The notes: generated by a model not told the origin, from the sequence alone. DNA of 49,530 bases from Coleofasciculus chthonoplastes F2-STO-03 (GCA_040222015.1 JAVJWO010000142.1:1-49530), one strand, 5' to 3'; shown: positions 123 to 17,920, numbered from the stretch's first letter. Made by a program: numbers and translations.

Positions 123-1286
123 TTACGAATAAGTCGGAATCGGCGGTAAATCTGGTGCTTCCTCAAGGTTGCTCATGTTATCCTCATCAATCTCACCTGT
201 CGTTAGGAAGCGGAAGGTTTCCTGATACAAACTCTTCCAGAAACGATTCGTCATTCCCTGACTCACTTCTGTCGGGTCTACCATAGGATGAGGCACAAGG
301 TCACTCGCTGGATAGAGATAGTAGTGGTGTCCTTTGTCTTTACCACCTAATTGATTAAAGAATCTCTGGTTGGTTTTCAGATCAGCCGCGTCTTCGTTCT
401 CGGTTAATACCAAAAATGTCGGAATAGTCTTTAACGTTTCTTTGTTTTTATCACTCCGAACAAAAGCACCAAAACGGTTAGCAGCGGTCAAACAGCCTAC
501 CGGAAAACTAACATTTTGTTCCCAAGAAAATTCTCTCAAGTCTAAGGGACCCGTGAGGTTAATGTAACGCTCATTAATTTCATTAGACACTTCCAAAAGT
601 GGAGCATACGCTACCACCTTTTTAATTCGGTCTGGTCGAGACGCCGCTAGTCCGAGGGCAACGGCACCACCGACAGAGAGTCCTACCGTATAAACCGGTC
701 CTGGCATTGCCTCTAATTCTGCCAGACGTTCCTGTGCATCTGTCAAATACTTCATATGAGACGACGTGAAATAGCGATCAAAATCTGGGTCATTGGGTCG
801 CTCAATTGCCAATGCCATATCTAATAGCTGGGGTGCCATTTTGATAATCCGACCAATCAGCGCCATCTTCTGAAACGTGGTCAATCGTTGAAATTGCCCT
901 TGCGATTTATTATCACGATTGGACAAGAAAAGGTCTAAAACGGCATCTTTTCGGACTTCATCACGGAGGGGATCACGAAATTCTGGCTTGAGGTCAACTT
1001 GGGGCCAATAACTATCGGGTGGAATAAACCCATGACCCGCCAAAGGAATTTGATAAATATTGAACCCGTTGCGGAAGAGGTAGTCACCCACCAGAAACAT
1101 TTGCATCGGTTTAGCTGAAAAGCCGTGAAAGATCATCACTGTTCCACGAATTGATTCTCCCGGTTCATGCATCTGATAAAAGGGAGCAACTCCTTCGCGT
1201 TTGTATGGATAAGATATCCAAGAAATGTAGTAGTTTTCAATCGATTTTTTGGTTTGAGCAATTTGATCAGCCGTTGGAGTAATCAT
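123..1286 (-). CDS. Alpha/beta-fold hydrolase (esterase/lysophospholipase-like)
   Basis: FHGF oxyanion motif, GLSVGG nucleophile elbow, candidate Asp (ENED) and His (VPHP). Confidence 0.85.
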   Translation of the reverse strand: MITPTADQIAQTKKSIENYYISWISYPYKREGVAPFYQMHEPGESIRGTVMIFHGFSAKPMQMFLVGDYLFRNGFNIYQIPLAGHGFIPPDSYWPQVDLKPEFRDPLRDEVRKDAVLDLFLSNRDNKSQGQFQRLTTFQKMALIGRIIKMAPQLLDMALAIERPNDPDFDRYFTSSHMKYLTDAQERLAELEAMPGPVYTVGLSVGGAVALGLAASRPDRIKKVVAYAPLLEVSNEINERYINLTGPLDLREFSWEQNVSFPVGCLTAANRFGAFVRSDKNKETLKTIPTFLVLTENEDAADLKTNQRFFNQLGGKDKGHHYYLYPASDLVPHPMVDPTEVSQGMTNRFWKSLYQETFRFLTTGEIDEDNMSNLEEAPDLPPIPTYS

Positions 1287-1327
1287 GGTGTTTGCGTGTT
1301 GAGTGTTGATTGTTGAGTGTTGATGGT

Positions 1328-1391
1328 GTCGGGGTGGGTTTGACGATTACCGATTCTGGACTCACCCAAATGTAACAAAACCCGCCCCGAC
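1328..1391. repeat. ~64 bp REPIN/MITE-like element (GT[AC]GGGGCGGGTTT...AAACCCGCCCC[GT]AC family)
   Basis: Terminal inverted repeats gtcggggtgggttt / aaacccgccccgac; related copies elsewhere in the window. Confidence 0.8.
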
Positions 1392-1518
1392 TGTTGCTGC
1401 GCTGCGCTCAAGGACATGGTTTTGAATGAACTCGATAATTCTTTGAGCGCGTATTGCCGTTCTCAATTTTTAGGGACTACATGAATTAATGTCACCCAGA
1501 GGCAAGTTAGGAAAGCGT

Positions 1519-2622
1519 CTACATCTCTCCGTATTTATCTAACAGGGATTTAAATTTTTCCAGATTTGCAGGTCGGTAATCGAAAACTTTTTGCCAACGT
1601 TGTTTAACACTCTCATGCAGATCATCAAAGTCATCACTAACGTCGCGAATCTTGCGTCCAGTTTTTAATGTTAATCGACCGATAAAACTCTGCGGCTCAT
1701 TGCTAAACATGATAGTTGAGTCAGGGTAAACGCCATATTTGTTGGCATCAGCATCATATTCGATGACGCTTGGATCAAGTTCCAATCCCAGACGTTGTTG
1801 CTGACGCAGTTGTTCAATGGAGTCAATCATCCACTGCAACGCTCCATCGGAGAAACCAACTTGTTCTTGAGATCCACCGCCCACTGATCCATGAACACCG
1901 GGAAACCAGACTTGACGCAGGAATTGATCCACGGGCTGACCCTTATATTCGCTCCTGCGGCTTTTCTGCATGGGTGTGACATAGAAAACCTCACGCTGCT
2001 CATCAATAGCAACAGCGTGTAGCGCATTCTTAATAATCGGACTTAATGAGGTATCGTGAAAGGCGTATTGTTGGTTAATCTTTCGGTCTAAGGAGAGAGA
2101 AGCCGATAAATCTGGGATTCCCAGGGCACCAACGGTATCCCAGCAGGCAAGAAGCGTAATCGGAACTTGCTCAGCCTTATTTTCTTGGCGAAACTTTTCC
2201 ATCTTGTAGGCATCGGGTTTATCCTCACCCTTACGGGAGCGATAGTTCTCGTAAGCTTCAGGAGCTTTGCGAATCTTTTCTCGCGGTAATAGTCCTGAAT
2301 TAAAGATCATTCCGGCTAAACTGCGAACGGTATAAGCACCGCGACTGAACCCAAACAAATAAATTTCATCACCGGGTTCATAGTTTAAGCAAAGAAAGCG
2401 ATAGCCATCTTGTATATTGCGATCAATTCCTTTGCCAAACGCGCCACCCAAAATCTTGGCAAATGGGTTTTCTGTCCCAATTCCCTCATCATAAAAGACG
2501 AGCTGGGGAATAGTTTGACTACAGGTTGCTTTAACCGCTTGGGCAATCTTAACCACATTAGTTGGATAAGGACTTGTTAGCTTCTGCCAGGTGCCGTCAC
2601 AACAAACAACTAAACGCTTCAT
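1519..2622 (-). CDS. DUF2235 family alpha/beta hydrolase (Tle1-like phospholipase catalytic domain)
   Basis: CCDGTW, TNV, GFSRGA, WDTVG and WFPGVHGSVGGG motifs. Confidence 0.9.
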   Translation of the reverse strand: MKRLVVCCDGTWQKLTSPYPTNVVKIAQAVKATCSQTIPQLVFYDEGIGTENPFAKILGGAFGKGIDRNIQDGYRFLCLNYEPGDEIYLFGFSRGAYTVRSLAGMIFNSGLLPREKIRKAPEAYENYRSRKGEDKPDAYKMEKFRQENKAEQVPITLLACWDTVGALGIPDLSASLSLDRKINQQYAFHDTSLSPIIKNALHAVAIDEQREVFYVTPMQKSRRSEYKGQPVDQFLRQVWFPGVHGSVGGGSQEQVGFSDGALQWMIDSIEQLRQQQRLGLELDPSVIEYDADANKYGVYPDSTIMFSNEPQSFIGRLTLKTGRKIRDVSDDFDDLHESVKQRWQKVFDYRPANLEKFKSLLDKYGEM

Positions 2623-2691
2623 TGATTATTTATCCTCAAAAAAAATGAATGGGTATAAACGGTAGATTTTCCCTTGGCTATAATGACTGAT

Positions 2692-3225
2692 TTAAGGATC
2701 TAGGATGAACCATGTTAGTAGGATTGAATCAATCAGTAATGCCCATAACACTATATTTCCCCAAAATGATGGGGGTTGACGAAATTGTTCTCGTTTAACC
2801 AGCAAAGACACGCCTCCTTGATTATCCGCGAGGAGATCATCATTAATAAAAAAGCTGACTTCGCTGCCAAACTTTAGTGTAAAGGAAGTGTTTTGGGCTT
2901 TAGAGCGGGCAATTTCTGGTGTTGCATATACACCTGTTGTCGGTACGCTCACGATAAATTCACTGGAGGTTATGGTATAGTCATTTGTCCATCCAGTTGT
3001 ACAATTTTCGCCGTTTTCATCACATTCATAGACGAACCCCCAGCGACTCCATGCGTCATACATTCCGCCTTGAGATTGATCAATAAACTGAACTTCATAG
3101 GTGCCAGGTTTTAAATATTTAATGACGGGGTTGTCATTATTGTTAACTCGTGCATCAATATTAATAATCGTGACATCACGAGAACGAGTCAAAACTGATT
3201 GCCCGGATTGAGATTGGCTGGTCAT
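2692..3225 (-). CDS. Hypothetical beta-rich protein with C-terminal membrane anchor, possibly lectin-like
   Basis: 177 aa ORF; ND..DNxG motif (FFINDDLLADNQGG); hydrophobic C-terminal segment. Confidence 0.65.
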   Translation of the reverse strand: MTSQSQSGQSVLTRSRDVTIINIDARVNNNDNPVIKYLKPGTYEVQFIDQSQGGMYDAWSRWGFVYECDENGENCTTGWTNDYTITSSEFIVSVPTTGVYATPEIARSKAQNTSFTLKFGSEVSFFINDDLLADNQGGVSLLVKREQFRQPPSFWGNIVLWALLIDSILLTWFILDP

Positions 3226-3475: not shown

Positions 3476-3505
3476 GGTGCGTTACGCTACGCTAACGCAC
3501 CCTAC
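3476..3505. repeat. REP-like palindrome ggtgcgttacgctacgctaacgcaccctac
   Basis: Hairpin ending in CTAC (GTAG on the minus strand); partial copy near 3403 and split copy at 21331-21400. Confidence 0.75.
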
Positions 3506-3636: not shown

Positions 3637-5739
3637 TCACGCTTCGTTGGCAAATGCGATGTAAGCACTACCTGCATAAGGGCGTCTTTGAGCATCTGCA
3701 TTATGTGCCCCGGTGATGACGACTCCATCACTGAGGGCAACGGTATACCCAAACTTGTCTTTGGGTTGCACCTCCGGGGAGTATAGGGTTTGTTTGTGCT
3801 GCCATGTGCCGTTTTCTAACTGGAAAATGTAGGCGCTTCCGGCATCAGAAGTCCCCACGACAGCAACTTGTCCCTGAATCGCAACTGAACAGCCGAAGCC
3901 ATAGCGACACTGTAAATCAGCAGGTTGCAGCTTCTGCTTTTGCTGCCATAGTCCGTTTTCCAGGTGGAAAATGTAGGCAGCGCCAGTATCGGGATAGCTT
4001 TGGGCATCGACACCATAGGCACCGACAATCGCCACCTCGCCACTGAGCGCGATCGCATTCCCAAAATTATCCCCATAGTGTAAGTCAGTAGGTTGCAGTT
4101 TTTGTTTTTCTACCCACACCCCATTCTCTAACTGGAAACTATAGGCACTCCCAGCAAATTGACCGCCATCTGCCTTGGTAAGACGCGCCCCGACGATCGC
4201 GGTTTCCCCACTAATCGCCACCGCACCCCCAAAACTATCCCCGCGCTGTAAGTCAGCAGGTTGCAGCTTCTGTTTTTGTTGCCACACTCCGTTTTCTAAC
4301 TGGAAAATATAGGCACTCCCAGCTTCGGGACGACTTTCGGCGTCTACCGTATAGGCACCAACGATCGCGAAATTGTCACTAATCGCCACCGCACTCCCGA
4401 AACAGTCATTCCCCTGTAAATCAGCGGGTTGGAGTTTCTGTTTTTCTATCCACACCCCATTTTCCTGTTGGAAAATATAAGCGCACCCAGCATTGGGGCG
4501 ATCGGGCGCATCGGTAAAATAGGCACCCACAATTGCCAGATTTCCCTGAATCGCCACGGCATTGCCAAAGACATCTTGACGCCCAAACCCAGGCGGTTGC
4601 AGTTTCTGTTTTTCTGTCCACACACCGTTTGTGTGTTGGAAAATATAGGCACTGCCCACAGCCGGAGAGCCATTCACTTGAGCCAGACGCGCCCCAATAA
4701 TCGCCGTCTCGCCACTCATGGCAATGGCGCTGCCAAAGATCCCTTTTTCGGGTAAATCCGGGGGTTGTAGCTTTTGTTGAGGCTGCCAGGTTGGGCAGGG
4801 TATGACTAAAGGCATCCAGGCTTTGACGGAGGTGAACCCAGAATTATTCAGATTTTCAATAACTGAATCCGGAGACGCGCCTTTATATCCGACAATTGAC
4901 CAAGCTCCCCGAAATTCCAAGTGATCAATCAGACGGCTACCGATCGCACGACAGGCATCTTTGGCAGCTTCGGAGAGATTGACACTGGCATCATCTTTAA
5001 GTGCGATCGCGACAATTTTCCCATCGGGTATCGCTTCAATCTGTTGGGCAAAGACATCAGCAACAGACGCATCCGCAAAGAAGTCAAACGAACCACTCGA
5101 CAGGGGCTTGCCAGTAGCCGGTTCAAACACCACCACATTTAACCCCCGCTGATATCCGCCCGGAATCGGGATCACAGATCCATTGCGGCTAATATGAGCC
5201 AAAACGCCGTACTCTCCAGCCGCCGATGTCGCCGAAATCGTCGCCGTGTTCGCGAAAATGGAGGGGAGTGTAAAGGAACGAAAACAAGTGACGCCATGCT
5301 CATCCGATAACGCTTCAGTCGCCGTTCCCGGTGTCGCTCCCTTTTGACCAATCATCGCCCAAGAACTGCGAAATTGTAGATAATAAACCCAATAAGCACC
5401 TAAAGCAGCACAGGCATTTTTCGCCCGCTCATCCAGATAGACAGTCCCCTCATCCTTCAGCGCGATCGCTACAATTCGACCAACAGGTAGACTCTCCATC
5501 CATTCCGCAAACGCGATCGCACAACTCGGATCACCAAAGGTATCAAAGGTAGCGCTCCCCAGCTTTTGACCCGTCACTTCATGGATAACCGCCACATTCA
5601 GTCCGCGATTGTACGGATCAAACCCGAATTCTTCGTCATTGACAGTAATCAGAGCCGAATTTCCCTGGTTACCAGCGGCAGACTGCACTGTGATATGGAG
5701 ATGGGCTTCGTTATGGTTCATTCCTTTGTCATTTGTCAT
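3637..5739 (-). CDS. Tandem ILEI/PANDER (GG) domains fused to a 7-repeat FG-GAP beta-propeller
   Basis: Two RGLNV..FD..IALKD..FRxxW..IGxKG units, then seven WxxKQKLQP..FGxAVAIxG...GA repeats; true start may be the Met at 5721. Confidence 0.85.
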   Translation of the reverse strand: MTNDKGMNHNEAHLHITVQSAAGNQGNSALITVNDEEFGFDPYNRGLNVAVIHEVTGQKLGSATFDTFGDPSCAIAFAEWMESLPVGRIVAIALKDEGTVYLDERAKNACAALGAYWVYYLQFRSSWAMIGQKGATPGTATEALSDEHGVTCFRSFTLPSIFANTATISATSAAGEYGVLAHISRNGSVIPIPGGYQRGLNVVVFEPATGKPLSSGSFDFFADASVADVFAQQIEAIPDGKIVAIALKDDASVNLSEAAKDACRAIGSRLIDHLEFRGAWSIVGYKGASPDSVIENLNNSGFTSVKAWMPLVIPCPTWQPQQKLQPPDLPEKGIFGSAIAMSGETAIIGARLAQVNGSPAVGSAYIFQHTNGVWTEKQKLQPPGFGRQDVFGNAVAIQGNLAIVGAYFTDAPDRPNAGCAYIFQQENGVWIEKQKLQPADLQGNDCFGSAVAISDNFAIVGAYTVDAESRPEAGSAYIFQLENGVWQQKQKLQPADLQRGDSFGGAVAISGETAIVGARLTKADGGQFAGSAYSFQLENGVWVEKQKLQPTDLHYGDNFGNAIALSGEVAIVGAYGVDAQSYPDTGAAYIFHLENGLWQQKQKLQPADLQCRYGFGCSVAIQGQVAVVGTSDAGSAYIFQLENGTWQHKQTLYSPEVQPKDKFGYTVALSDGVVITGAHNADAQRRPYAGSAYIAFANEA

Positions 5740-5978: not shown

Positions 5979-8582
5979 CTACGCCTTATGCTTCAGCGCC
6001 TCCAGCACGGTGGGGGGAACTTCCAAATAGGTGTACGAATTGTTACGATCCCTTGACACCAAGAACAGCGTATCGCTGTCGGTGGGAATATTAGTCGTCA
6101 CTCGTACCGTTTCCGAGTCGGCTAGAGGTAGCCAGTCCCCACTTGCGGTGACATATCCCAACTCAGCCAGGTAATCCTGATCCGCTGACGGAAACGTGAG
6201 CAGCACATAATTCTCTGAACCATGACAATCATAGTCCTGGACACAGTGGGAACGATAGCGATCTGGATCTAAGCTGTCGGAAACATCATATAGACGCAAC
6301 CGCAACGTTTCTCCCCCTTGGCGCTTTAAGGCTTGAATCTGATTCGGAGCCAATTCCCAGTAAGCATAGGCATTTTTGCCACTGTAAGGGACTAAGAATA
6401 GACGACTGTGAGAGGGACTAGGGGAATGGGAAAGCCAGGTTCCTTCACCATGATGACCCATCCCTCTGTCTCCTGGAAGAACATTGCCCGTCCCGAAAAT
6501 CGGCGTCACCCGCACAGTTTCCGATCGCGTCAACGGTAACCAGTAGCCTTCACGGGTTAAGTAACCCAGTTCCACTAAATAATCCCGGTTCTCAGCGGGT
6601 AAGGACAATAGTAAATAGTTTTGCTCCCCCTGACATCCAAACTGTTGTAGCATCGGGGGCTGATCCCGCTCTGGGTTGGGACTATCGGTGACATCATACA
6701 GACGCAACATCAGCTTTTCTCCCCCTAAACGCTGGAGGGATTGGGCTTGAGCGGGGGCAATGTCCCAATAGGTGTAGGCATTTTTCCCATCATAAGGAAC
6801 TAAAAATAGGCGACTGTGAGCGGAGGCTGGCGGGTAATATCCTCCGCCATACCCAGATGGGGAAGGTGGTGCGATCATCGTCGATGGTGTCGCTGCTGGG
6901 TAGGGCGATGGCGTGAGCCAAGCTTGTGGGTTGGGAGATGCTGTAACGGCGGTACTGGTGGGAATTGTCGGAGCAACCCGCACCTTGTTCGAGGTAGCCA
7001 AGAGCAGCCATTCTCCGCTTGGGGTGAGATACCCTAACTCCGCCATATAGTCCCGATTTTCTGCGGGTAGCGTCAACAGGATATAGGGAGGTTGAGGCTC
7101 ACAGCTAAACTGTTGGAGCAGATAGGGGGGCTGATGGGGCGAAATCAGGCTGTCGGTGACATCATAAAGCCGTACCACCAGATCTTTGCGCGGACGCTGG
7201 AGATTCTGGATATGGGCTGGGGCTATGTCCCAATAGGTGTATGCGTTTTTGCCATCGTAGGGGACTAGGTGTAAACTGCTGTGGACTGGGGCTGGTGCTG
7301 GGGCTGGTGCTGGGGCTGGCACTGGGGCTGGCACTGGGGCAGCAACTGGGGTGGGAGGTGGAATAGCTACGCCCCCTCCCCCTGTGTTTATTGGTGTGCT
7401 ATTCGTCGCCATTCCCCCACCGAAAGGACTGCGTTTTGGACGATCATCGTCATCATTGTCCCGATCTTTCAGCAGCCAGACGAGGAAACCGCCAGCTAGA
7501 AACGAAAGGGCGATGAGTAACGGTATCCACCAGGGAATCAGTCCGGGTGGCGTGGCTTGGGCATTTCCATCGACCTCATCAACTTCTCCGGGTGCGGCGG
7601 CTTCGGGAGAATTGGGTGCATTCGGTGCCTGGGCTAGCTGGGGTGCGGCGGTGGGTTCTTCGATCGCGTCTTCTGGTTCTGTGGTGGTTTCGGCAACGGC
7701 TTCGTCAACCACCTCCTCATTGGTGGGATCTAAAGCATAGCCGATAAAGGCTTCTACCGCAGGCGTTGCCGGTTCTTTATAGGCATAAGACAGGGATTGG
7801 GAAAAAGGATAGCGTTCATCGTCGGGAAAGACTTTATGCATGGGGATGATTTTCACATCCTGGCGATCAAAAACTTGATCCGCGATCGCATATCCAATCC
7901 CGCCAGCGTTTTTCCCCAGTTCCTCAATCACGGCATCGGTACTATCTCGATCCACCCGGGTGGTATTGGCTCCGGTTCTAAACGATGCCGCTTTAAACAC
8001 ATCGTAGCGTTGAAACGCCCGCCGGGTATCACTATACTCCGGGCGATCAATCAGTTGAATCGGTCCGGGTTCACCCCCTAGTTCTGACCAATCGGTAATT
8101 TCACCTCGGAACACCCGGGAAAAGTCCTCAAAGGTAATATCTATTTCACCATAAGGACTATTGGGTCCGACGAGAATGGCAATCTTTTGCCGACTTAAGG
8201 GAATTTGCACTAATCCTTGTGCCTTTTCTACCTCTGTTAACGGGCGTCCGATCGCCGCCAGGTCAATCTCTTCATTCACCAAGGCTTCTAATGCGGCGGT
8301 ACTCCCAGCGGCATTGAGTTGCACCTCACTCCCCGGATACTGTCGCTCAAAGCGCTCTTTTAAGGCTTGATTCACCTTTGCCATACTGCTAGAACCATCC
8401 AGCCGCACTGTTGTACCACGGGGAACAGACTCCGGTACCTCGAATTCCTCCGGTGAAACCTGAGCCAATACCGGATTTAGCCGCAGGGCGGTGAGTCGGA
8501 ACTGAGGCGTAACCGTTCCTACGGTGAGAAATAGGATAACGGAAGCGATGAACGCCTCTTTTTTACTGAACCTCTGCATCAT
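5979..8582 (-). CDS. PstS-like substrate-binding domain, TM helix, Pro-rich linker and three DUF4912-like repeats
   Basis: N-terminal hydrophobic leader; LDGSSSM/GSTAAL/IDRPEYSDTR PBP motifs; WWIPLLIALSFLAGGFLVWLL TM; three SRLFLVPY.GKNAY.YW repeats. Confidence 0.85.
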   Translation of the reverse strand: MMQRFSKKEAFIASVILFLTVGTVTPQFRLTALRLNPVLAQVSPEEFEVPESVPRGTTVRLDGSSSMAKVNQALKERFERQYPGSEVQLNAAGSTAALEALVNEEIDLAAIGRPLTEVEKAQGLVQIPLSRQKIAILVGPNSPYGEIDITFEDFSRVFRGEITDWSELGGEPGPIQLIDRPEYSDTRRAFQRYDVFKAASFRTGANTTRVDRDSTDAVIEELGKNAGGIGYAIADQVFDRQDVKIIPMHKVFPDDERYPFSQSLSYAYKEPATPAVEAFIGYALDPTNEEVVDEAVAETTTEPEDAIEEPTAAPQLAQAPNAPNSPEAAAPGEVDEVDGNAQATPPGLIPWWIPLLIALSFLAGGFLVWLLKDRDNDDDDRPKRSPFGGGMATNSTPINTGGGGVAIPPPTPVAAPVPAPVPAPAPAPAPAPVHSSLHLVPYDGKNAYTYWDIAPAHIQNLQRPRKDLVVRLYDVTDSLISPHQPPYLLQQFSCEPQPPYILLTLPAENRDYMAELGYLTPSGEWLLLATSNKVRVAPTIPTSTAVTASPNPQAWLTPSPYPAATPSTMIAPPSPSGYGGGYYPPASAHSRLFLVPYDGKNAYTYWDIAPAQAQSLQRLGGEKLMLRLYDVTDSPNPERDQPPMLQQFGCQGEQNYLLLSLPAENRDYLVELGYLTREGYWLPLTRSETVRVTPIFGTGNVLPGDRGMGHHGEGTWLSHSPSPSHSRLFLVPYSGKNAYAYWELAPNQIQALKRQGGETLRLRLYDVSDSLDPDRYRSHCVQDYDCHGSENYVLLTFPSADQDYLAELGYVTASGDWLPLADSETVRVTTNIPTDSDTLFLVSRDRNNSYTYLEVPPTVLEALKHKA

Positions 8583-8873: not shown

Positions 8874-9776
8874 CTAGATCCAGAGTCTCAAACTGACTAC
8901 CTGATCATGACTCAATTGTTCAATCCCTAAATTTTCACTCCTATCTTTATATCCCACAATCGCCCAAGAACTGCGTAATTGCAGATGGCGAATCAGGCGA
9001 CTACCAATGGATTCACAGGCTTGCTTTGCCCGTTCGGAAAGATTGACAGAGGCATCATCTTTAACCGCAATGGCAATACCGTGCTCCGGGGAACACTCTT
9101 CAATCAGTTGGGCAAATGCGTCGGCATTCTCCGGATTAGCAAATAAATCAAAAGAACGACTGAAGGCTTGGGTTTTATCACGGCGATCAAAAACAACAAC
9201 ATTCAATCCCCGTTGATATCCTCCTTCTATGCCTATCTCTTCCTTATTCCAGGTGATTTGGGCAAAATTTCCCTGATTTACTCCTGCTGATATCACGCCT
9301 AAGCTAGGACGCTGGACAGTATCCGCAGAGACAGAAAGTAAACGAGAACAGATCACATCTGAATAGTCCGATAATTCTTCTTGGGCGATTCCGGGTTTAG
9401 CATCTTTTTGACCAATTAGCGCCCAAGAGGTGCGAAATCTCAAACAGTGAACTTGCCGACTACCCAGGGATTGACAGGCGCGTTTAGCCCCCTGACTCAG
9501 GTTGGCACTTGCCTCATCTTTAACCGCGATCGCCACAATTTGACCACTGGGCAACTGTTCAATCAGATCAGCAAATCGGTCGGCATTTCCGGGGAAAAAG
9601 GTATCAAATGTGGTGCAAACTAAGGGTTGTCCTGTTGCTTCATCGATAACAGCAACATTCAGTCCGCGACTATAGTGAACAAATCCAATTTCTTGGTCGT
9701 TTAGGGTGATCCGGGCTGAGTCACCCATGAATCCACCTGCCGATTGAACCTTTATTGTTACTGGTGAAGAAGTCAT
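8874..9776 (-). CDS. Tandem ILEI/PANDER domain protein
   Basis: Two complete ILEI-like units (RGLNV, FDT/FDL, VKDE/VKDD, [FL]R[TS]SWA); paralogue of the N-terminus of 3637-5739. Confidence 0.85.
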   Translation of the reverse strand: MTSSPVTIKVQSAGGFMGDSARITLNDQEIGFVHYSRGLNVAVIDEATGQPLVCTTFDTFFPGNADRFADLIEQLPSGQIVAIAVKDEASANLSQGAKRACQSLGSRQVHCLRFRTSWALIGQKDAKPGIAQEELSDYSDVICSRLLSVSADTVQRPSLGVISAGVNQGNFAQITWNKEEIGIEGGYQRGLNVVVFDRRDKTQAFSRSFDLFANPENADAFAQLIEECSPEHGIAIAVKDDASVNLSERAKQACESIGSRLIRHLQLRSSWAIVGYKDRSENLGIEQLSHDQVVSLRLWI

Positions 9777-9872: not shown

Positions 9873-10943
9873 CTAATGAACATATTCGCCATAGGCAAAC
9901 CCCCTAGCTTGTATTATTTCACTTTGAAGCACCAGAGTCATGTCAACCGAACCTGTCACTTCCTCAATAAAGGTATATTGGCGACTCTGATTATCGGGTA
10001 CAATTAACTCACTGGTGGCATCAAACGCCATGGTTAATGACAATTGATCCTGATCATCAGCCGCTTGAACCTGTAACCGTTGGGGCATACTCACCGTGCG
10101 ATCGCCAAACAGTGACGCCATAATTCCGGGTAGACGTAACGGTAAACTGGCAGTGGCAGACCAATCCCAATCAATTTGTAACGTAGCCCCCAAAAACACC
10201 TTCCGCAAGCGAGTGCCGGAATAGATAAAAATATAGGGTAAGCCACTAATGGAATGGTCTTTATTCGTGCGTTTATCCAATACGAGAGTGAACGATCTGC
10301 CCTTTTTGTCTGTAACATAAGCGACAAACCATTCCCAACCAATATCCTCGCCCCAGCGAAACCGACCAAAATTGCGATCGTGATAGCAGAACCAGTCGTG
10401 ATCAATGGCAAAGGATCGTCCACAAACCGATAAGTCTCCCGAAACTTTTAATCCGGGGATCAATCCCCAACCAATAAACCCGCTACCGAATGGCGCATCT
10501 TCGGTTACTAATAGAGGCATGGCTTCAGCTTGTCCTTGAAGGTTGAGGGAAAGCTGCGCCCTCTCGTCATGCACTTGCACCGATGAGTTTATGCCGTTAA
10601 TTTCTAGATTGATCCCCTTCCCTTGCAGACGTAAGGGATGACGACATACCATGTCCGGTTCCCAGTCTAGGCTAAAGGTTGTGCCAAAGGTTGCCACTGA
10701 GGGAGAGGATTCCAGTTCTGGATTAATTTGGGTGGAGGGCAAGTTGACAATAAAGCTAACTTGCATCTGCCCCTGTTCCGGTTTGCCGATGAGAGTCGCG
10801 TTGACAAGTAGGCGGATTCCCGTTTTCAGATCCAGCACAATAAAGTGATACCAATCCTTCCAATCCAGAGGTAAGGCGGGATCTTCTAGGGGAATGCGTA
10901 AAGCTTCGACACGGTTAAGGAGAACTTGTTCGTTGACATTCAT
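9873..10943 (-). CDS. CrtC/AttH/tocopherol-cyclase-like (double lipocalin barrel) protein
   Basis: KDWYHF, YHDRNFG and GWEWF motifs resemble the EWWY, DHxWG and WDW signatures of this superfamily. Confidence 0.6.
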   Translation of the reverse strand: MNVNEQVLLNRVEALRIPLEDPALPLDWKDWYHFIVLDLKTGIRLLVNATLIGKPEQGQMQVSFIVNLPSTQINPELESSPSVATFGTTFSLDWEPDMVCRHPLRLQGKGINLEINGINSSVQVHDERAQLSLNLQGQAEAMPLLVTEDAPFGSGFIGWGLIPGLKVSGDLSVCGRSFAIDHDWFCYHDRNFGRFRWGEDIGWEWFVAYVTDKKGRSFTLVLDKRTNKDHSISGLPYIFIYSGTRLRKVFLGATLQIDWDWSATASLPLRLPGIMASLFGDRTVSMPQRLQVQAADDQDQLSLTMAFDATSELIVPDNQSRQYTFIEEVTGSVDMTLVLQSEIIQARGFAYGEYVH

Positions 10944-12613
10944 CGCCCCAAAGAACCTCCTTCATTAAGAACATCATCGAATTTGACAGGGGAAGTTGGG
11001 GTAGGAGTGAGAGGTGGTGGGGCTTGATCCGCGATCGCCTGTACATATCTCGCCAGTTTCGGTGATACCTGAATCAGTCCGAACAGAATCCCCACAAACC
11101 AGCGCTGGGCATCCATTCCCAGTTCACAGACAAAGGTTTTTGTCGCCGCATTGGATACAGAAACTGGGTTGTCTATCCCTTTAACGTTTAAGGCATTGGC
11201 AACTAATGTCCATAACCATTGTTCGCCGACATGAAGTAATCCCCCTTGTCCCATCTGCACCCCTAGAGAGGAATGATACGCCGCCGCCGCCGATTGACTG
11301 ATCACCAGCCACCGGGGGGCTTGCGCCGAAGCAAAGGCGAGGACGCCATTCTTGAAGAAACGAGTACGGCTGAGTCGATTGAGTAATTGACTACCCGCTT
11401 CTGTGCGGCTATAGATATCTCCTTGTTGTGCCAACAGGATGAGGAGTTCTACCACCAACCAACGTCCTGGAAGCGCATCCAGTCCGGGTAATCCCGTGGT
11501 TAAACTGTAGCTGGCTTGGGCGGCAATGGTTTGATCAACAATCGGTAGAGTTGAGTCTTGAGTTGCGATCGCCCGGAAACAATCCGCCATTCTGGGTGAC
11601 ACTTGGGCAAGTCCTAAAATCAGTCCCGCAAACCATTTTTCAGGGTTTTGAGTGTTGAGTATTGACGCTTCGCTACGCTGATATGGAACCGGGTTTGTAG
11701 GGGCGGGTTTAGGGATTTTCTTGTCGCTAGTGATAGTAACGTTTGAACAAAACCCGCCCTTATTCAATTCTGAGTGAACTTCCCCATCTCCCCTATCTTC
11801 CCTATCTCCCCCATCTCCCCAACCTCCCCCATTTTCCATTTCAATATCAGTTTGGGCTAAATCAAATAACCATTCCTCCCAAATCGAAAGCAGATGCTGT
11901 TGTCCAATTTGCGCGGCGAGGAGAGTATTCGCCATCGAGATACTACTCGATATCCAAGCCGGAACTTGGGCTAAGGAAAAGGCATAAACGCCATTTTTAA
12001 AGAACTGGGTGCGACTCAGTTGGGTAAGGAGTTCATTCCCTTGGGGCGTTTGGGCATAATTGGTTCCATGTTGACACAACCGAGTTAACAGTTCCGCCAC
12101 CAACCAACGGGCAGGAATTTTATCCAAATCGATTAATCCCGACATGAGACCAAAGATTCCAGCGGTACTGGGTTCAGACGTTCCCAAGTAGTTTGCCTTA
12201 CTGTCTCTCGGTGGCGGAAATGTCACCATTAAGGGATGGATGACGGGAGTGCGATCGCTGGCTTTTATTGTTTCTAAAAGTTCTAATTGGATGGGAATAG
12301 CGTCTTCTAGCCAACCGGGAAATCTTAACCAGGTTTTCAGGCTTGTCCCACTGGGTAAATATTCGGGAAGGGAAACCGTTAACTGACAGGTCAACTCATA
12401 CTCTGGAAACAAATAAACATAGGTGGGTTCTAAACGACTCACCATTGGTAAAAGCTCGCTGTCATTGAGCTGCCAATCATCGAGAGTTGGACGTAACAGT
12501 ACGGCTTCATGAAGCTGATTCCGGATCAAGAGCTGGAAAACTAAGTCTGTGCCGGAAGGGATTTGTAATCTTACTTGGGGCAGGGTATGGGGGTTTTCTA
12601 AGCGTTGACTCAT
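10940..12613 (-). CDS. Hypothetical protein with two internally duplicated helical domains
   Basis: 557 aa; LD.[IL]P.RWLV.ELL...LSRT.FFKNGV.AF..AQ.P.W occurs twice; ATGA overlap with the next gene. Confidence 0.8.
   Translation of the reverse strand: MSQRLENPHTLPQVRLQIPSGTDLVFQLLIRNQLHEAVLLRPTLDDWQLNDSELLPMVSRLEPTYVYLFPEYELTCQLTVSLPEYLPSGTSLKTWLRFPGWLEDAIPIQLELLETIKASDRTPVIHPLMVTFPPPRDSKANYLGTSEPSTAGIFGLMSGLIDLDKIPARWLVAELLTRLCQHGTNYAQTPQGNELLTQLSRTQFFKNGVYAFSLAQVPAWISSSISMANTLLAAQIGQQHLLSIWEEWLFDLAQTDIEMENGGGWGDGGDREDRGDGEVHSELNKGGFCSNVTITSDKKIPKPAPTNPVPYQRSEASILNTQNPEKWFAGLILGLAQVSPRMADCFRAIATQDSTLPIVDQTIAAQASYSLTTGLPGLDALPGRWLVVELLILLAQQGDIYSRTEAGSQLLNRLSRTRFFKNGVLAFASAQAPRWLVISQSAAAAYHSSLGVQMGQGGLLHVGEQWLWTLVANALNVKGIDNPVSVSNAATKTFVCELGMDAQRWFVGILFGLIQVSPKLARYVQAIADQAPPPLTPTPTSPVKFDDVLNEGGSLGR
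11697..11830. mobile_element. REPIN-like element plus C-rich 9-mer array inserted in frame in a CDS
   Basis: gtaggggcgggttt...aaaacccgccct (11697-11760) and ccccatctc units (11781-11830), same type as the intergenic repeats. Confidence 0.8.
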
Positions 12614-12774: not shown

Positions 12775-13764
12775 TTAATCCAGAACCATCCAATCAACGG
12801 TGATACACCCTTTATTATCCCAATACCATCCCGGCTCATCATTCATTTTAAAGATGACAATTTGACCTGCTTTTAAGCTAAGAGTTTTTGCACTGCTGAT
12901 TTCTTCAATAACTTCACCACTAGCTTGATCTACAGCAACAAGTGAATAGGGCGTATTGTTTGGATACGTCACATGACTCAGTAGCTCAGCCCCTGGTTCT
13001 CCGGCTGCGGTAATTTCTACTCCGTCTTTCACCGACCAAGTACCAGAAGGAGTGACTTTGATTTTAGCAGCCGTGTCCATAGGATTTTGAAACTCCATCC
13101 CTTGTTCAAAACTCGCATGGACTTGCAATTGACCTGAGGGGAGGACTTTTTTCTCAAAGGCTTTATAGATTACATTATTTTGGGAAAAGTTATAAAACGC
13201 AATTCGCCCTTCACTAAAATCGCCGTCAATATCAATTTCTAAACTGCCATTTACTGAAACTTGTAAATTCGTTTTGGTATAAACAAAGTCAAACGTATTT
13301 TCAACATTTTTCTCCCATCCCTTGTTGCCTAGAGTTTTTCCCCGCGCTAGTTCAGTCACGTTCCCGGTATGGCTCCAGAAAGCAGATTCATCTTTAGGAA
13401 TTCCATTGATTAAGGATACCGCTAATCCGGTTTTGGCTAGTCCCCACTTATGTTTCTGCTGACCTTTCCTCCAATCGACGAGTAGATATTTAGCGGAATT
13501 ATTTGTGGTGTCTCCGGGTTGGAAACCTAGGGCAAACCCAATAAAATCATCATCCCCAGTATTGCCGACGCTTATTTTCCCGGAGACTTTAGTATTAAAA
13601 ACATTAAATGGACTGTAAAATAATGTGGGTTTACCATTCTTTTTCTGGATCACTTCTTGACCATTCCGGGATACATCCCATTTGCCTGCACCCTTTGCAT
13701 AGGATTCTTCTTTCCAGTCGTTGAGATCGACGGTTTCGACTTTGACTTGAGCCATTTCATTCAC
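12775..13764 (-). CDS. Thrombospondin C-terminal (TSP_C)-like domain plus LecA/PA-IL-like lectin domain
   Basis: GDDDFIGFALGFQ..LVDWRK and GRIAFYNFSQ resemble TSP_C; C-terminal FKMNDEPGWYWDNKGCITV resembles the LecA Ca/sugar loop. Confidence 0.7.
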   Translation of the reverse strand: MNEMAQVKVETVDLNDWKEESYAKGAGKWDVSRNGQEVIQKKNGKPTLFYSPFNVFNTKVSGKISVGNTGDDDFIGFALGFQPGDTTNNSAKYLLVDWRKGQQKHKWGLAKTGLAVSLINGIPKDESAFWSHTGNVTELARGKTLGNKGWEKNVENTFDFVYTKTNLQVSVNGSLEIDIDGDFSEGRIAFYNFSQNNVIYKAFEKKVLPSGQLQVHASFEQGMEFQNPMDTAAKIKVTPSGTWSVKDGVEITAAGEPGAELLSHVTYPNNTPYSLVAVDQASGEVIEEISSAKTLSLKAGQIVIFKMNDEPGWYWDNKGCITVDWMVLD

Positions 13765-13976: not shown

Positions 13977-15341
13977 CTACTTACTTCGATAAATGACATA
14001 ATTAATCAACTCCTTCATAAATCGACGGTCATGCACTGGAGAGCCCCATTGTTCGCCTGGTCGCAGTGGCGTTTCCGGGAACAAAAACTCTAAGGAATTA
14101 AAGATATCTGCCGCTTTTTGGGCAAGCGATCGCGCCACGTTCCACCCGTGTTCAATACTACCACACCGCTGCATTTGCTCCATAATGAAGGCAACATGAT
14201 CCGGATGTTTCTGGGTACGAGGTAGAGCCAGAATTGCCCGCATTTTCTCTGCTTCCTGTTTACTGTTGGCTAAAACATGGTTCAACATCAACGTGCGTTT
14301 CCCTTCATAGATATCACCACCAATTTCTTTGCCATAAGCTTCCATTTCCCCCTGGAGATTTAACAAATCATCTTGGATTTGAAACGCGATCCCCAAAATC
14401 ATGCCAAATCGGGTTAATCCTGCCAAGGGTTCGACCAAATCCTGCACACTTGCGGCAGGATATCCGACAATTAGACCAATCCGACAAGGAGTAATAAAGG
14501 AATACCAGCAGGTCTTTTTCACGCACATGGTAAAGTAATCTTGGTCACTCAGATGGAAGGGATTTGTCGCCACCCAATCCAATTCCATTGCTTGACCTTC
14601 CACAGATTGCCGCGCCATGAATTCAATTTCATGTAAAATATTCAGCGCCTTCGATACCCCCAGCACGGATAAATTTTCCAGCAGCAATCCCACCGCTAAA
14701 ACATTCGTCGCATCTCCCACATTAATCGCACGGGGAATGCCAATCATTTGATGTAAGGTTCCCTTTCCCCGTCGAGACTCAGATTCATCTTCGATATCAT
14801 CGTGAATCAAAAACGCATTATGATACAGTTCCAAGGCGGCAGCCGCCGTTAAAGCCGAATGTCCCATTCCTCCCACCGCCCGGGCAACACTAATACACAT
14901 TGTCGGACGCAGCATTTTCCCAACGCGAAAAGGATAATCACTTAACAGTTCATAGAGGGGAGTATAAGCGCCGGAGACTTGGCGCTGAGTTTGGATAAAT
15001 TCCTCAATCTTGACAAAAATGGCATCGCGTGATCCCTGTAGTGCCTCGTTGATAATGGTTTGATTAAACTTAGAGGAATCGGCGGCAAGACGTTGCTCCT
15101 GAGCATCCTGTGCCGCCTCTAATTGGGCAAGATCCGATAAGGTTGTGGCAATCGCCTTACGACTTCCTGAATCAATATCGGATACCGTTGACGATGAAGG
15201 CTTAGAGATCGGGGGGTGAGGCAGTAAAACTTGGCGGGGTGTGCCTTTCAACTTGAGGGTTGGGAATTTTTTTGGGTCATACAATAACAGACTGAAGAAG
15301 ATAAAAAATACGAGAAATAAGAATAGTCCTAACATTAACAA
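13977..15341 (-). CDS. Polyprenyl diphosphate synthase (GGPP synthase-like) with N-terminal membrane anchor
   Basis: GKMLRP, LIHDDIEDES..RRG (FARM), GQAMEL, KKT, FQIQDD (SARM), DIYEGKRT; SD AGAGGA upstream. Confidence 0.93.
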   Translation of the reverse strand: MLMLGLFLFLVFFIFFSLLLYDPKKFPTLKLKGTPRQVLLPHPPISKPSSSTVSDIDSGSRKAIATTLSDLAQLEAAQDAQEQRLAADSSKFNQTIINEALQGSRDAIFVKIEEFIQTQRQVSGAYTPLYELLSDYPFRVGKMLRPTMCISVARAVGGMGHSALTAAAALELYHNAFLIHDDIEDESESRRGKGTLHQMIGIPRAINVGDATNVLAVGLLLENLSVLGVSKALNILHEIEFMARQSVEGQAMELDWVATNPFHLSDQDYFTMCVKKTCWYSFITPCRIGLIVGYPAASVQDLVEPLAGLTRFGMILGIAFQIQDDLLNLQGEMEAYGKEIGGDIYEGKRTLMLNHVLANSKQEAEKMRAILALPRTQKHPDHVAFIMEQMQRCGSIEHGWNVARSLAQKAADIFNSLEFLFPETPLRPGEQWGSPVHDRRFMKELINYVIYRSK

Positions 15342-15376
15342 TTTTCCTCTAAAGTTTCGGTTCAGGGCTATTCGTC

Positions 15377-16072
15377 TTAGTCCTTATTAATCAAAATAGC
15401 CCCGATGACAATGTGACGCCCATTGGACGGATCGAAAACGACAACATTCAAGCCGCGCTGATATCCTCCCGTAAAGAAAACAAGTTCCCCATTACAGGTA
15501 ACTTGAGCCATGTTACCCCAATTATTCCCTGCTGATGTCGCGGCGATGGTAAAACTGGGAACACTCACCTTTGTCGCTGTAATCTCCCGCGAACAAGTAA
15601 CCGCCGCCTGATTAGACAACTTTTCTGTTGCCGTTCCCGGTGCAGCACCCGTTTGACCAATTATCGCCCAAGAACTGCGAAATTGCAGGTCATCAATCAG
15701 GCGACTTCCCAAGGATTTACAGGCTCTTTTGCCCCGTTCAGATAAATTAAAGTTAGCATCATCTTTAATGGCAATGGCGACAATTCGACCTAGAGGTAAG
15801 GTGGAGACAAATTGGGTAAAGGATTCGGAGTTACCTGAGTTAAAGGTATCAAATGTCGTACCAAAAATGGGTTGTCCGGTAAATTCATCGAAGACGGCGA
15901 CATTGAGTCCGCGATTGTAGAAATTCTCACCCAAGTCTTGGGTATTGAACCTAATCGACGCCGAGTTCCCATGATTATAACCGGCTGAAGACACCTGTAC
16001 TGTTGTCGTGACGCCGTTTCTGGCAGGGTTAACGTTTGTTGTGTTCATAGGATTTACTAACCTGATGACCAA
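15377..16072 (-). CDS. ILEI/PANDER domain protein, second domain truncated
   Basis: One full ILEI unit; the second stops just after RGLNVVVFDPSNG; start probably the Met at 16048. Confidence 0.8.
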   Translation of the reverse strand: MVIRLVNPMNTTNVNPARNGVTTTVQVSSAGYNHGNSASIRFNTQDLGENFYNRGLNVAVFDEFTGQPIFGTTFDTFNSGNSESFTQFVSTLPLGRIVAIAIKDDANFNLSERGKRACKSLGSRLIDDLQFRSSWAIIGQTGAAPGTATEKLSNQAAVTCSREITATKVSVPSFTIAATSAGNNWGNMAQVTCNGELVFFTGGYQRGLNVVVFDPSNGRHIVIGAILINKD

Positions 16073-16414
16073 TGAGAGGTGACAGCGTTTTAGCTTGAGG
16101 GACTCTTGCTGGGGGCGCTTTCTTCGGCTGCTCGTCTGGTGAACTCAAGAATTAGACTTTCCTTATGGCTTCCTATCCTTGAATAAGGGAAGGGATAAGA
16201 AATGAGAGTGTACAAATCAGATGTGAACATTCATTCACGTTAAACCCTTACGGGGAGTCAAATTCAGCAAAATTTTCGTTCACGAATCATTTAATATTAC
16301 TCTATAGCTATATATTTTTTGAGATTAGAGAAGAAAATTAACAGACTTTATTTACATCAAGCTAATGATAGGCTAAAAAATAATCCTACCACTAATATTG
16401 TGCAGGGATGTTAG

Positions 16415-16648
16415 GAGATGGGGAGCTGGGGAAGCTGGGGAAGCCAATGTAGAGACGTGCCATGGCACGTCTGGGAGCTGGGGGAAAAGAGGCGTTCCGA
16501 TAAAACATCTTTTGTAGGGGCGGGTTTTACTGCTAACGTTTCGTTTTCACCCTAATGTAACTAAACCCGCCCCGACCTAACCGTTCAATTATCGCAAATG
16601 ACAAATGACAAATGACCAATGACAAATGACCAATGACCAATGACCAAT
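16415..16648. repeat. Composite intergenic mosaic: G-rich 9-mers, REP palindrome, REPIN-like element (16514-16576), STRR array (16595-16648)
   Basis: Direct reading of the repeat units. Confidence 0.9.
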
Positions 16649-17920
16649 AAACATATTGTTTTAACAGCCTACGGCTCATTTGGCGATATTCATCCCTATA
16701 TGGCGATCGCACTAGAGTTACAAGCACGGGGACATCGTACTGTTATTGCCACAAGTGAACTGTATCGCTACAAGATTGAAGCCGAGGGAATTGGATTTTA
16801 TCCGGTTCGTTACGATAGTGCGATCGATATGCAGCAGGATGGCGAGTTTATCGGAGTGCTGTCAGAATCCCGTCGGGAAAGTGAATATACTATCTGTTAT
16901 CTATTAATGCCCCATCTGAGGGCGACGTACAAGGCGTTACTGGAGGCGGTACAGGGTGCGGATCTCCTGGTGACGCACCACTTAAGCTTTGCTGGATCAT
17001 TAATTGCGGCAAAAACAGGGATTCCGTGGGTGTCAACGGTTCTCTCTCCGATCCTATTTATGTCAGCTTATGATTCCCAAACCCTTTCCACTACAACCAT
17101 CTCCCCTTATGAACAAGCCTTAGCTGTTGTCGCCAATGACGCCCGTCTACGCCAATTTCGTTGGCAAGCCCGATTGTGGAGTGCGCCGATACGTCAACTG
17201 CGGGGGGAATTGGGGTTACCAGCCAGTTGTGATCCGGTGTTTGAAGGTCAACATTCGCCAGATTTGGTACTGGCGTTATTTTCTTCAAAGCTCGCCAAGC
17301 CGCAAGCGGATTGGTGTCCCCAAGTTCAAGTGACGGGGTTTCCTTTTTATGATCGCGCTAAACAGGAGAATTTGTCTCCAGAATTGGCAAGGTTTCTGGA
17401 CTCTGGAGCTCCTCCTATTATATTTACCTTGGGTTCGCTGATGGTATGGACACCCGGAAACTTCTATTTAGAAGGTGCGATCGCGGCTCAACAGTTAGGA
17501 TACCGTGCCGTGTTACTGGTGGGCAAGGGAGTCCATAACCTACCGTTAGAACAGTTACCCGAAGGGGTGATTATGGTTGACTATGCACCCCACTCCGAAA
17601 TTTTCCCCCGTGGGGCGGTGATTGTCCATCATGGCGGAGTTGGCACCACTGGACAAGCTTTGCGATCGGGGCGTCCCATGTTGGTGGTACCTTATGCTCA
17701 TGATCAGCCTGATAATGCCATGCGTTTGGTGCGTTTAGGGGTAGCGCGTACTCTCGCCCGACATGAGTACAGTGCGAATACATTAACAGCGGAACTCAAG
17801 CAACTCTTGTTTGAGCCGAGTTATGGAAGCAAAGCCGCCGAGGTGGGAAAGCGGGTGCAGCAAGAAGATGGAGTCAAGGCGGCGAGTGACGCGATCGAAA
17901 CCTATCTCAGATCGAAGTAG
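16640..17920 (+). CDS. GT1-family (GT-B) glycosyltransferase, RhlB/EryCIII/sterol glucosyltransferase-like
   Basis: GSFGDIHP N-terminal motif; HHGGVGTT and PYAHDQPDNA nucleotide-sugar motifs. Confidence 0.93.
   Translation: MTNKHIVLTAYGSFGDIHPYMAIALELQARGHRTVIATSELYRYKIEAEGIGFYPVRYDSAIDMQQDGEFIGVLSESRRESEYTICYLLMPHLRATYKALLEAVQGADLLVTHHLSFAGSLIAAKTGIPWVSTVLSPILFMSAYDSQTLSTTTISPYEQALAVVANDARLRQFRWQARLWSAPIRQLRGELGLPASCDPVFEGQHSPDLVLALFSSKLAKPQADWCPQVQVTGFPFYDRAKQENLSPELARFLDSGAPPIIFTLGSLMVWTPGNFYLEGAIAAQQLGYRAVLLVGKGVHNLPLEQLPEGVIMVDYAPHSEIFPRGAVIVHHGGVGTTGQALRSGRPMLVVPYAHDQPDNAMRLVRLGVARTLARHEYSANTLTAELKQLLFEPSYGSKAAEVGKRVQQEDGVKAASDAIETYLRSK

Follow-up and report, generated by a model that had tools for sequence, protein, structure and literature searches.

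A conserved module of five predicted isoprenoid genes with exchangeable lectin-fold neighbours in Coleofasciculus chthonoplastes and other cyanobacteria

Introduction

What is made by the genes crowded at one end of contig C142 of Coleofasciculus chthonoplastes F2-STO-03 (GCA_040222015.1, JAVJWO010000142.1:1-49530), and why do so many lectin-like domains lie among them? This contig, 49,530 nt of a 7.7-Mb assembly, is the window analysed here. On its minus strand, 11 open reading frames (ORFs) follow in a row at 123-16072 (387, 367, 177, 700, 867, 300, 356, 557, 329, 454 and 231 aa), and a 426-aa ORF for a GT1 glycosyltransferase diverges from them at 16640-17920. A preliminary description of the sequence had recognised these twelve genes, all of which our ORF listing recovered, and had proposed a pathway for a prenyl-alcohol or terpenoid glycoside with sugar-binding partners. 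Linkage, co-occurrence and lectin enrichment support this proposal, though not for all eleven genes of the row.

We found a conserved unit of five genes, which we regard with high confidence as a functional isoprenoid module. Its product is likely a glycosylated isoprenoid lipid and not a carotenoid.

Results

Five linked genes form the conserved core

The conserved unit consists of the genes for a prenyl diphosphate synthase, a 557-aa protein, an enzyme of the AttH/CrtC fold (356 aa), GT1 and an SCP2-like carrier:

13977..15341, minus strand: prenyl diphosphate synthase, core (PF00348, Asp-rich motifs)
10940..12613, minus strand: 557-aa protein without a family, core (model, repeat, linkage)
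9873..10943, minus strand: AttH/CrtC-fold enzyme, core, predicted to hydrate a prenyl double bond or to act on it as a lyase/cyclase (model fold, invariant residues)
16640..17920, plus strand: GT1 glycosyltransferase, core in cyanobacteria, divergent (Pfam, linkage)
G000:C79:253-777, on contig C79: SCP2-like core gene (PF02036)

We gathered 50 genome loci and 47 metagenome loci around relatives of the 356-aa protein (called AttH below), assigning the metagenome loci to cyanobacteria by identity, GC content and tree, not by label. With L049 (a 52-residue match) excluded from the counts, 68 loci were cyanobacterial and 28 were not. For 35 of the cyanobacterial loci, at least 7.9 kb upstream and at least 6 kb downstream were available. 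In these well-flanked loci, the synthase was present in 32, the 557-aa protein in 33, GT1 in 31 and the SCP2-like gene in 24. A quick AttH tree, which gave long-branch warnings, served only for hand grouping of the loci into 25 lineage groups.

The core genes also occurred together genome-wide. Among 301 genomes of the order, the AttH gene was found in 25, and the SCP2 gene in the identical 25. The best 24 GT1 matches (at least 504 bits, with a 500-bit cut taken from the ranking after the fact) all fell within the 25 AttH-positive genomes, and in 20 of these 24 GT1 lay within about 12 kb of the AttH gene on the same contig; weaker GT1 relatives were found in 41 other genomes of the 301. These counts are not independent events, because the genomes are related. 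The AttH gene was present in all eight genomes of the same genus. A phylum-wide sample gave matches in 4 of 401 genomes, one of the four broken, and no AttH homologue was found on plasmids. Linkage of the homologues, on which the preliminary description had staked its proposal, thus held across many genera.

The notion that all eleven genes form one pathway did not survive in full, as the two hydrolase genes, the PBP gene and each particular lectin gene were optional. The extent of the cluster also needed revision, because the SCP2-like gene lies outside the window, on C79. The ends of C142 and C79 bear the same G-rich repeat, with no exact overlap, and the counterpart of the GLSVGG alpha/beta hydrolase gene is followed by the SCP2 gene in four relatives (L003, L006, L007 and L008). 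From the shared repeat and this gene order, the cluster very probably runs from C142 onto C79.

Other genes were seen near the module in some lineages: a double FkbM-type methyltransferase with a further C-terminal domain (~710 aa) in L033, L036-L038, L048, L068 and L072 (Okeania/Dapis), and an FkbM gene and a P450 gene in L067.

The synthase is an extra prenyl diphosphate synthase

The synthase has the two Asp-rich motifs of trans-prenyl diphosphate synthases (HDDIED at residue 180, DDLLN at 324) and their RRG loop (RRGK). Its best PDB match was a geranylgeranyl diphosphate (GGPP) synthase, 1wmw (E 6.9e-52). It scored below every NCBIfam cut-off, with 165.7 bits against 468 for GGPP synthase. 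A hydrophobic helix at residues 2-20, a predicted membrane anchor, is followed by a disordered linker; many cyanobacterial copies have such a helix and a linker of very variable length, and others have neither. Since the genome has two other prenyl synthases (on C71 and C125, 25-27% identity), the one in the window is an extra copy. The C79 SCP2-like protein matched PF02036 at 23.8 bits (cut-off 21.3); the proteobacterial SCP2-like homologue tested had no PF02036 match.

The second-best model for the synthase was the family 2B polyprenyl transferase cargo of encapsulin terpene operons (NF041169, 161 bits against a cut-off of 450). A 42% identical synthase lies two genes from a family 1 encapsulin on a plasmid of Ruegeria sp. 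AD91A (L102:8028-12942), where it ends an operon with the encapsulin, a DUF3237 protein and an FAD oxidoreductase. We considered encapsulin targeting by the conserved C-terminal peptide of the 557-aa protein and set it aside: in a search confined to family 1, a shell gene was found in none of five module genomes.

The AttH/CrtC-fold enzyme may hydrate a prenyl double bond

The 356-aa protein had been called CrtC/tocopherol-cyclase-like. It has no Pfam match, and yet its model (pLDDT 94) is a double barrel of the AttH/CrtC type. Its structural matches were AttH NE1406 (2ich), CghA, Fsa2, kievitone hydratase (7a0q) and 25-phosphosteroid lyase (9fzn), at Z 22.5-25.8; the row after these scored 8.6. 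The root-mean-square deviation was 3.3-3.8 over 278-297 residues, and no CrtC structure was among the rows. Kievitone hydratase was the top Foldseek match.

Y187, D189, W203 and W205 were invariant across 85 sequences of the family. The arrangement of Y-x-D followed about 15 residues later by W-x-W is that of CrtC, as judged by spacing without a true CrtC alignment, and the W-x-W aligned to the GWDW of the AttH family (probability 8%, E 0.004). For CrtC, the accessible part of one paper gives Y266/D268 as catalytic residues (PMC4717167), and that of another gives W283/W285 and reports that CrtC also hydrates geranylgeraniol, at 4% conversion (PMC12402844). The CrtC family itself (PF07143) matched neither the 356-aa protein nor any other protein of the genome, and in the loci inspected PF07143 searches for a true CrtC found only AttH/NE1406-type genes.

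AttH-like hydratases and lyases act on isoprenoid double bonds or their tertiary esters, as we propose here. Hgs, an AttH-like protein by its description rather than by structure comparison, hydrates isoprenoid lipid tails according to the portion of the preprint available (bioRxiv 2025.10.20.683597), and phosphate elimination from steroid side chains is described in the accessible part of PMC8449060. The 356-aa protein differs from these enzymes in sequence (9-13% identity) and in context, which includes its own prenyl synthase and no radical-SAM desaturase.

The same evidence bears on a second reaction. The enzyme might cyclise the chain or eliminate its (di)phosphate, and GT1 would then glycosylate a cyclic or rearranged terpenoid alcohol, for example of the geranyllinalool type. 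The phosphosteroid lyase and the pericyclases CghA, Fsa2 and Phm7 matched at Z 22.5-25.4; several basic residues are conserved throughout (K29, H33, K248) or almost throughout (R44, R194, R270); such an activity would also provide the missing diphosphate-removing step. In CrtC, a further motif, H239-x-W241, corresponds by spacing to I157-x-W159, in which the tryptophan is invariant and the histidine is unmatched. Against this reading stand the CrtC-like spacing of Y-x-D and W-x-W and the fact that, in the literature consulted, the AttH-like enzymes acting on isoprenoid double bonds (CrtC, kievitone hydratase and, as far as its available text goes, Hgs) are hydratases. We consider cyclisation or elimination rather unlikely and prefer hydration.

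The 557-aa protein may pair with the AttH enzyme

The 557-aa protein had been described as duplicated, and we found the internal repeat (35% identity). It comprises an immunoglobulin (Ig)/PapD-like domain, two copies of a helical domain, a proline-rich linker and a conserved C-terminal peptide; outside cyanobacteria, the helical domain is single-copy. The model (pLDDT 76) gave Ig-like structural matches at Z 7-9. We found 76 relatives among 1.84 billion representatives. For the helical domain within whole-protein queries, searches of PDB sequences, Foldseek (PDB and viral models), VIA-align and Atlas gave Ig-domain matches or nothing, and a weak search found no longer fused form.

In this genome, as in many relatives, the stop codon of this gene and the start of the AttH gene overlap. 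A complex prediction weakly supported the pairing of the two proteins: it scored 0.51 (runs 0.51, 0.62 and 0.00; best control 0.00), with contact agreement of at least 0% and partner pLDDT of at least 65. The mark it passed was reached by 116 of 157 solved pairs and 2 of 215 mismatched pairs, and passing scores of 0.60 or less came from 18 of the 157 solved pairs and from both passing mismatches.

The helical domain has invariant Arg, Lys, Asn and Glu residues, which allow the protein to be read as a prenyltransferase acting on a small-molecule or protein acceptor. AttH would then cyclise or hydrate the product, as tocopherol cyclase and kievitone hydratase do, and GT1 or a methyltransferase would cap the acceptor. 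The invariant motifs R-T-R-x-x-K-N-G and R-W-x-V-x-E could bind diphosphate without Mg, the substrate of the top Foldseek match, kievitone hydratase, is a prenylated aromatic, and the methyltransferase scores weakly with UbiE/BioC-type models. The neighbours scanned held no conserved gene for an aromatic acceptor, and no sequence or fold match to a prenyltransferase came from the whole-protein searches, in which the helical domain was not folded separately. We regard this reading as very unlikely.

In a more speculative proposal, which we think quite doubtful, the helical domain would be a new kind of metal-independent prenyl-diphosphate-processing enzyme that hands its product to AttH, and the module would build an isoprenoid lipid body or membrane patch with interchangeable versions of cap and coat. 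Equally doubtful are its two versions: in Proteobacteria and Bacteroidota, the cap would be a methyl group and the coat four small proteins (amphipathic and Ig-like); in cyanobacteria, rapidly swapped intracellular lectins would read a sugar cap.

A low-confidence insertion in this gene (window 11690-11830, about residues 259-313) resembles sequence on at least 10 other contigs, and a repeat element thus appears to lie in frame.

A glycosyltransferase in cyanobacteria, a methyltransferase elsewhere

GT1 matched PF00201 (UDPGT), PF03033 and PF04101 above cut-off, with an EryCIII-like match. It has GT-B domains and a UDP-sugar signature (motifs GSFGDIHP and HHGGVGT), and its PDB matches were oleandomycin and sterol glycosyltransferases. 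GT1 was found in 43 of the 68 cyanobacterial loci and in none of the 28 others. An S-adenosylmethionine-dependent methyltransferase showed the opposite distribution (0 of 68 versus 16 of 28). This swap fits a single hydroxyl that is capped by either a sugar or a methyl group.

The 28 non-cyanobacterial loci, many of them on short contigs, had the synthase in 18, an unknown protein with a single helical copy in 22 and SCP2 in 18. They include loci of Ideonella, Piscinibacter and Rhodanobacteraceae; there were Flavobacteriaceae homologues besides. Alongside the methyltransferase, four small proteins replace GT1 and the lectins, three of them conserved in 9-11 of the 28 loci each. Ig-like domains, weakly like that of the 557-aa protein (best E 1.5e-5 to 5e-3), occur in three of the four; none of the four was found in this genome. 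Loci L045:4985-7487, L087:316-3251 and L089:2032-5025 show a repeat protein and double-Ig, Cys-rich Ig and amphipathic-helix Ig proteins. In low-GC copies, the N-terminus of the double-Ig protein resembles a helix-hairpin-helix.

GT1 was fused to accessory domains in two cases. At L053:11993-16636, a 1547-aa ORF joins a PBP domain, a membrane helix, two domains of the type of the 177-aa accessory protein, and GT1; this locus lacks the synthase and a 557-aa-type protein. In G173, two 177-aa-type domains are in frame with GT1 in a 1615-aa open frame. Because both are in the Spirulina group, they may represent one event.

The module is distinct from carotenoid and hopanoid loci

The module resembles the CrtE-CrtC-glycosyltransferase route to carotenoid alcohols and glycosides, yet it fails the family and context tests for that route. 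Both have a GGPP synthase-type enzyme, a double-barrel enzyme bearing Y-x-D and W-x-W, a glycosyl- or methyltransferase for the cap and, optionally, a hydrolase or acyltransferase. CrtF, for example, gives carotenoid methyl ethers. The Chlorobium glycosyltransferase belongs to GT2, in contrast to GT1 in the module. The module further differs in lacking a nearby phytoene synthase or desaturase and a PF07143 match, and in adding an unknown protein, an SCP2 carrier and a lectin repertoire.

As the preliminary description had stated, crtB, crtI, squalene-hopene cyclase and class I terpene cyclase genes are absent from the window: Pfam scans of 26 ORFs of the window gave no match to the phytoene/squalene synthase, squalene-hopene cyclase or terpene synthase families. 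A single phytoene-synthase-type gene was found in the genome, on a contig other than C142. The hopanoid-cluster marker PF13243 (squalene-hopene cyclase) had no match in this genome, which is 99.99% complete.

The module might still tailor carotenoids: it would supply extra GGPP, and its CrtC-like hydratase and glycosyltransferase would modify the carotenoids of the housekeeping pathway. Hydration followed by glycosylation is an established carotenoid theme (carotenoid glucoside esters such as OH-chlorobactene glucoside laurate are listed in the accessible part of PMC5884252), and the phytoene-synthase-type gene elsewhere in the genome would allow it. The neighbours scanned included no recognisable crt gene, and a CruF-type gene (for its role, see the available text of PMC6013536) is already present in all five cyanobacterial genomes tested. 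In proteobacterial hosts, 4 of 10 PF00494 matches were tested; three were HpnC/HpnD above cut-off and the fourth scored best as squalene synthase. We judge carotenoid tailoring highly improbable.

Lectin-fold and other accessory genes surround the core

The remaining window genes are accessory or peripheral:

15377..16072, minus strand: ILEI gene (231 aa), accessory, 426-nt in-frame deletion (Pfam, blastn against L001)
12775..13764, minus strand: TSP_C plus LecA/PA-IL-like protein, accessory, no signal peptide (PF05735, profile)
8874..9776, minus strand: tandem ILEI (FAM3/POMGnT1-stem) protein, accessory (PF15711 twice, Arg/Asp/Arg triad)
5979..8582, minus strand: PBP domain, membrane helix and three DUF4912 domains, accessory (Pfam)
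3637..5739, minus strand: two ILEI domains and FG-GAP propeller, accessory (Pfam; triad in both ILEI domains)
2692..3225, minus strand: 177-aa tail-anchored protein with a D-D-x-x-x-D-N-x-G-G motif, accessory (motif, C-terminal hydrophobic helix)
1519..2622, minus strand: Tle1-like alpha/beta hydrolase (GFSRG), peripheral (PF09994)
123..1286, minus strand: alpha/beta hydrolase (GLSVGG), possible lipase or acyltransferase, peripheral (Pfam)

Over the window, Pfam gave Hydrolase_4, Tle1-like, ILEI with FG-GAP, PBP with DUF4912, ILEI, TSP_C, polyprenyl synthase, ILEI and GT1, in agreement with the synthase, GT1, two serine hydrolases, three ILEI genes and TSP_C named beforehand. The 867-aa PBP-DUF4912 gene and the FG-GAP propeller of the 700-aa ILEI protein had been overlooked. 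The 177-aa and 557-aa proteins, like AttH, had no Pfam match.

The crowding of lectin-like domains noticed beforehand was far above background. A lectin-fold gene was present in 32 of 35 core-centred 13-kb windows. Twelve 13-kb windows drawn at random from this genome, with 107 ORFs of at least 120 aa, contained none among the matches listed, which for two families were the first five. Lectin labels at the loci were taken from seeds from those same neighbours and those in the control from Pfam. Lectin-fold genes occurred in 54 of the 68 cyanobacterial loci and in 21 of the 25 hand-made lineage groups. The folds are unrelated to one another and vary by lineage: ricin-type, jacalin, LamG, DUF642, galectin, ILEI and TSP_C domains lie beside the core in different genera, with weak H-type and B-lectin matches.

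Within genomes, these folds often concentrate in the cluster. Here, 5 of 5 ILEI matches and the single TSP_C match lie inside it, the lectin seeds match just three places outside it, and 5 LamG, 1 ricin-type and 1 DUF642 matches are outside. For ricin-type domains, the cluster contained 6 of 8 matches in Cylindrospermum and all 4 in Nostoc; for DUF642, it contained 5 of 10 in Okeania, and for LamG, 4 of 15 in Oscillatoria. Of 143 lectin-fold proteins, among them 13 of the 177-aa type, 129 had no hydrophobic N-terminus; the 14 that have one are all DUF642 proteins. A later membrane helix was found in 21 of the 143.

Some sugar-binding residues are retained. The tandem ILEI protein (300 aa) aligns without gaps to the POMGnT1 stem, and all five complete ILEI domains of the window keep the triad R129/D179/R207 (numbering transferred through the alignment) shared by POMGnT1 stem/FAM3 (ILEI) domains, which binds N-acetylglucosamine (GlcNAc) in POMGnT1 according to the accessible part of PMC9802357. 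In the TSP_C protein, PF05735 confirmed the TSP_C part, and the LecA-like assignment was weak but consistent: the LecA (PA-IL) loop N-D-x-P-G-x-Y-x-D-N-x-G is present, a profile of 23 homologues ranked four LecA-family chains first (E 0.024-0.1), and 6 of the 23 homologues, though not the window domain itself, had a PA-IL Pfam match (best 9.1e-5). The motif noted in the 177-aa protein is present, but its lectin label rests on this motif, with no Pfam or PDB match. The module proteins differ from the POMGnT1-stem, FAM3 and LecA domains in that they come from bacteria, mostly lack a signal peptide and can be replaced at the same locus by ricin-type, jacalin, LamG, DUF642 and galectin folds.

The other accessory genes are less regular. 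In the well-flanked loci, the 177-aa-type gene was present in 11 of 35, the PBP gene in 8, the GLSVGG hydrolase in 6 and the Tle1-like gene in 4; genome-wide, 14 of the 25 genomes with the module and 15 without it have the GLSVGG hydrolase. In the 231-aa ILEI gene, 426 nt that are present in L001 are missing, and a contig of a very close strain (run X1) has 426 more letters at 15413/15414. Either this strain has undergone a deletion of its own or the assembly has collapsed here; most of the second ILEI domain is lost, along with part of the C-terminal membrane anchor.

The lectin genes could also be cargo of a variable adhesion or defence island that bind outside or foreign glycans, beside a module that does make an isoprenoid glycoside. 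Unrelated folds substitute for each other across lineages, 14 of 15 DUF642 proteins look secreted, lipase-like genes (Tle1-like, patatin) are variably present, and four of the 25 lineage groups have no lectin-fold gene. In L069 (2-4359 and 11642-17062), an SCP2-synthase-unknown-AttH module without GT1 in the locus is flanked by contractile-injection-system genes (a tape-measure protein, PF19268, and a baseplate-like ORF with LamG) and by an 1800-aa LamG protein. The association has, however, outlasted repeated gene replacement in 21 of the 25 groups, the lectin genes often lie between GT1 and the synthase, their genome-wide copies are concentrated in the cluster, and a 177-aa-type domain is fused to GT1. 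On balance, we find the cargo explanation quite unlikely.

Surroundings of the cluster

A XisI/XisH pair and a Uma2 nuclease gene (window 18374-20124) adjoin GT1 and mark the right edge of the cluster. At 26154-39923 lie genes for a TPS-domain exoprotein and then CHAT-TPR, DUF928 and AAA_35-CHASE2 proteins, a common cyanobacterial signalling set. The intergenic gaps at 5740-5900 and 16580-16640 contain short tandem repeats of the heptamer type, which are common in filamentous cyanobacteria. Promoter and terminator scans of the region were uninformative (32 sites versus 25.9 in shuffles, and 17 versus 19.8, respectively). Across the region, contigs of three metatranscriptome runs gave even coverage in each of the 30 bins, with GT1 on the opposite strand covered as well; this coverage may reflect expression or DNA carry-over.

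Discussion

We propose that the module hydrates a C20-type prenyl chain to a tertiary alcohol, which is glycosylated and bound by intracellular lectins. As a whole, we give this reading an even chance. That the module makes a glycoside of a hydroxylated prenyl chain is somewhat more probable; that the lectin-fold proteins bind this glycoside is tentative, at slightly less than even.

In this proposal, the membrane-anchored synthase, whose family is evident from its motifs, would make a short trans-prenyl diphosphate, most likely C20. The 557-aa protein, whose gene is linked to the AttH gene, would work with AttH and probably bind or remove the diphosphate; alternatively, a host phosphatase may remove it. 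Asp189 of the AttH/CrtC-fold enzyme would then protonate a prenyl double bond and water would add to give a tertiary alcohol, as its fold and invariant residues suggest. GT1 would place a sugar on this hydroxyl, and in the non-cyanobacterial copies, where the gene is swapped, the methyltransferase would cap it instead. The SCP2-like protein may carry the lipid. Finally, the enriched lectin-fold proteins, mostly signal-less, partly tail-anchored and varying by lineage, would bind the glycoside.

Several points weigh against this reading, starting with its chemistry. The product and the lectin ligand are themselves deduced from sequence and models. The AttH fold also holds Diels-Alderases and a phosphate lyase, the CrtC histidine is unmatched as described above, and the core revealed neither a phosphatase nor a class I terpene synthase, which leaves the diphosphate-to-alcohol step without an assigned enzyme. 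The linkage of GT1 has exceptions: the next GT1 match after the best 24, at 491 bits, is in a module-negative genome; in one of the 25 module genomes GT1 lies 5 Mb from the module; and G516, the only one without a GT1 match, has 5,237 bases outside the search. The GT1/methyltransferase swap coincides with lineage and is thus close to a single event. As to the lectins, labels were unequally sourced in the comparison with random windows, a crude pattern found the full ILEI triad in 37 of 70 motif matches across loci, and the DUF642 proteins look secreted. The sugar preferences of the lectin folds are expected to differ (galactose, GlcNAc, mannose), and the GT1 orthologues are conserved (53-95% identity), so that one shared ligand fits poorly.

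We found no description of the module in the papers searched, a set that left out most subscription papers, and the preliminary description, which did not recognise the combination from any described pathway, agrees with this. Within that literature the module is undescribed, a known type of chemistry with an unexplained lectin repertoire. It is easily missed, because the AttH-fold enzyme and the 557-aa protein bear no family label; the latter may represent a new class of enzyme. It is unusual for one lipid locus to have recruited at least eight lectin-type folds, and this offers a direct test of the ligands of signal-less bacterial lectins, and the five-gene set is small enough to be expressed whole. 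The module suggests that cyanobacteria that form mats, blooms and reefs, among them Coleofasciculus, Okeania, Microseira, Oscillatoria and Nostoc, have an isoprenoid product that has so far escaped recognition.

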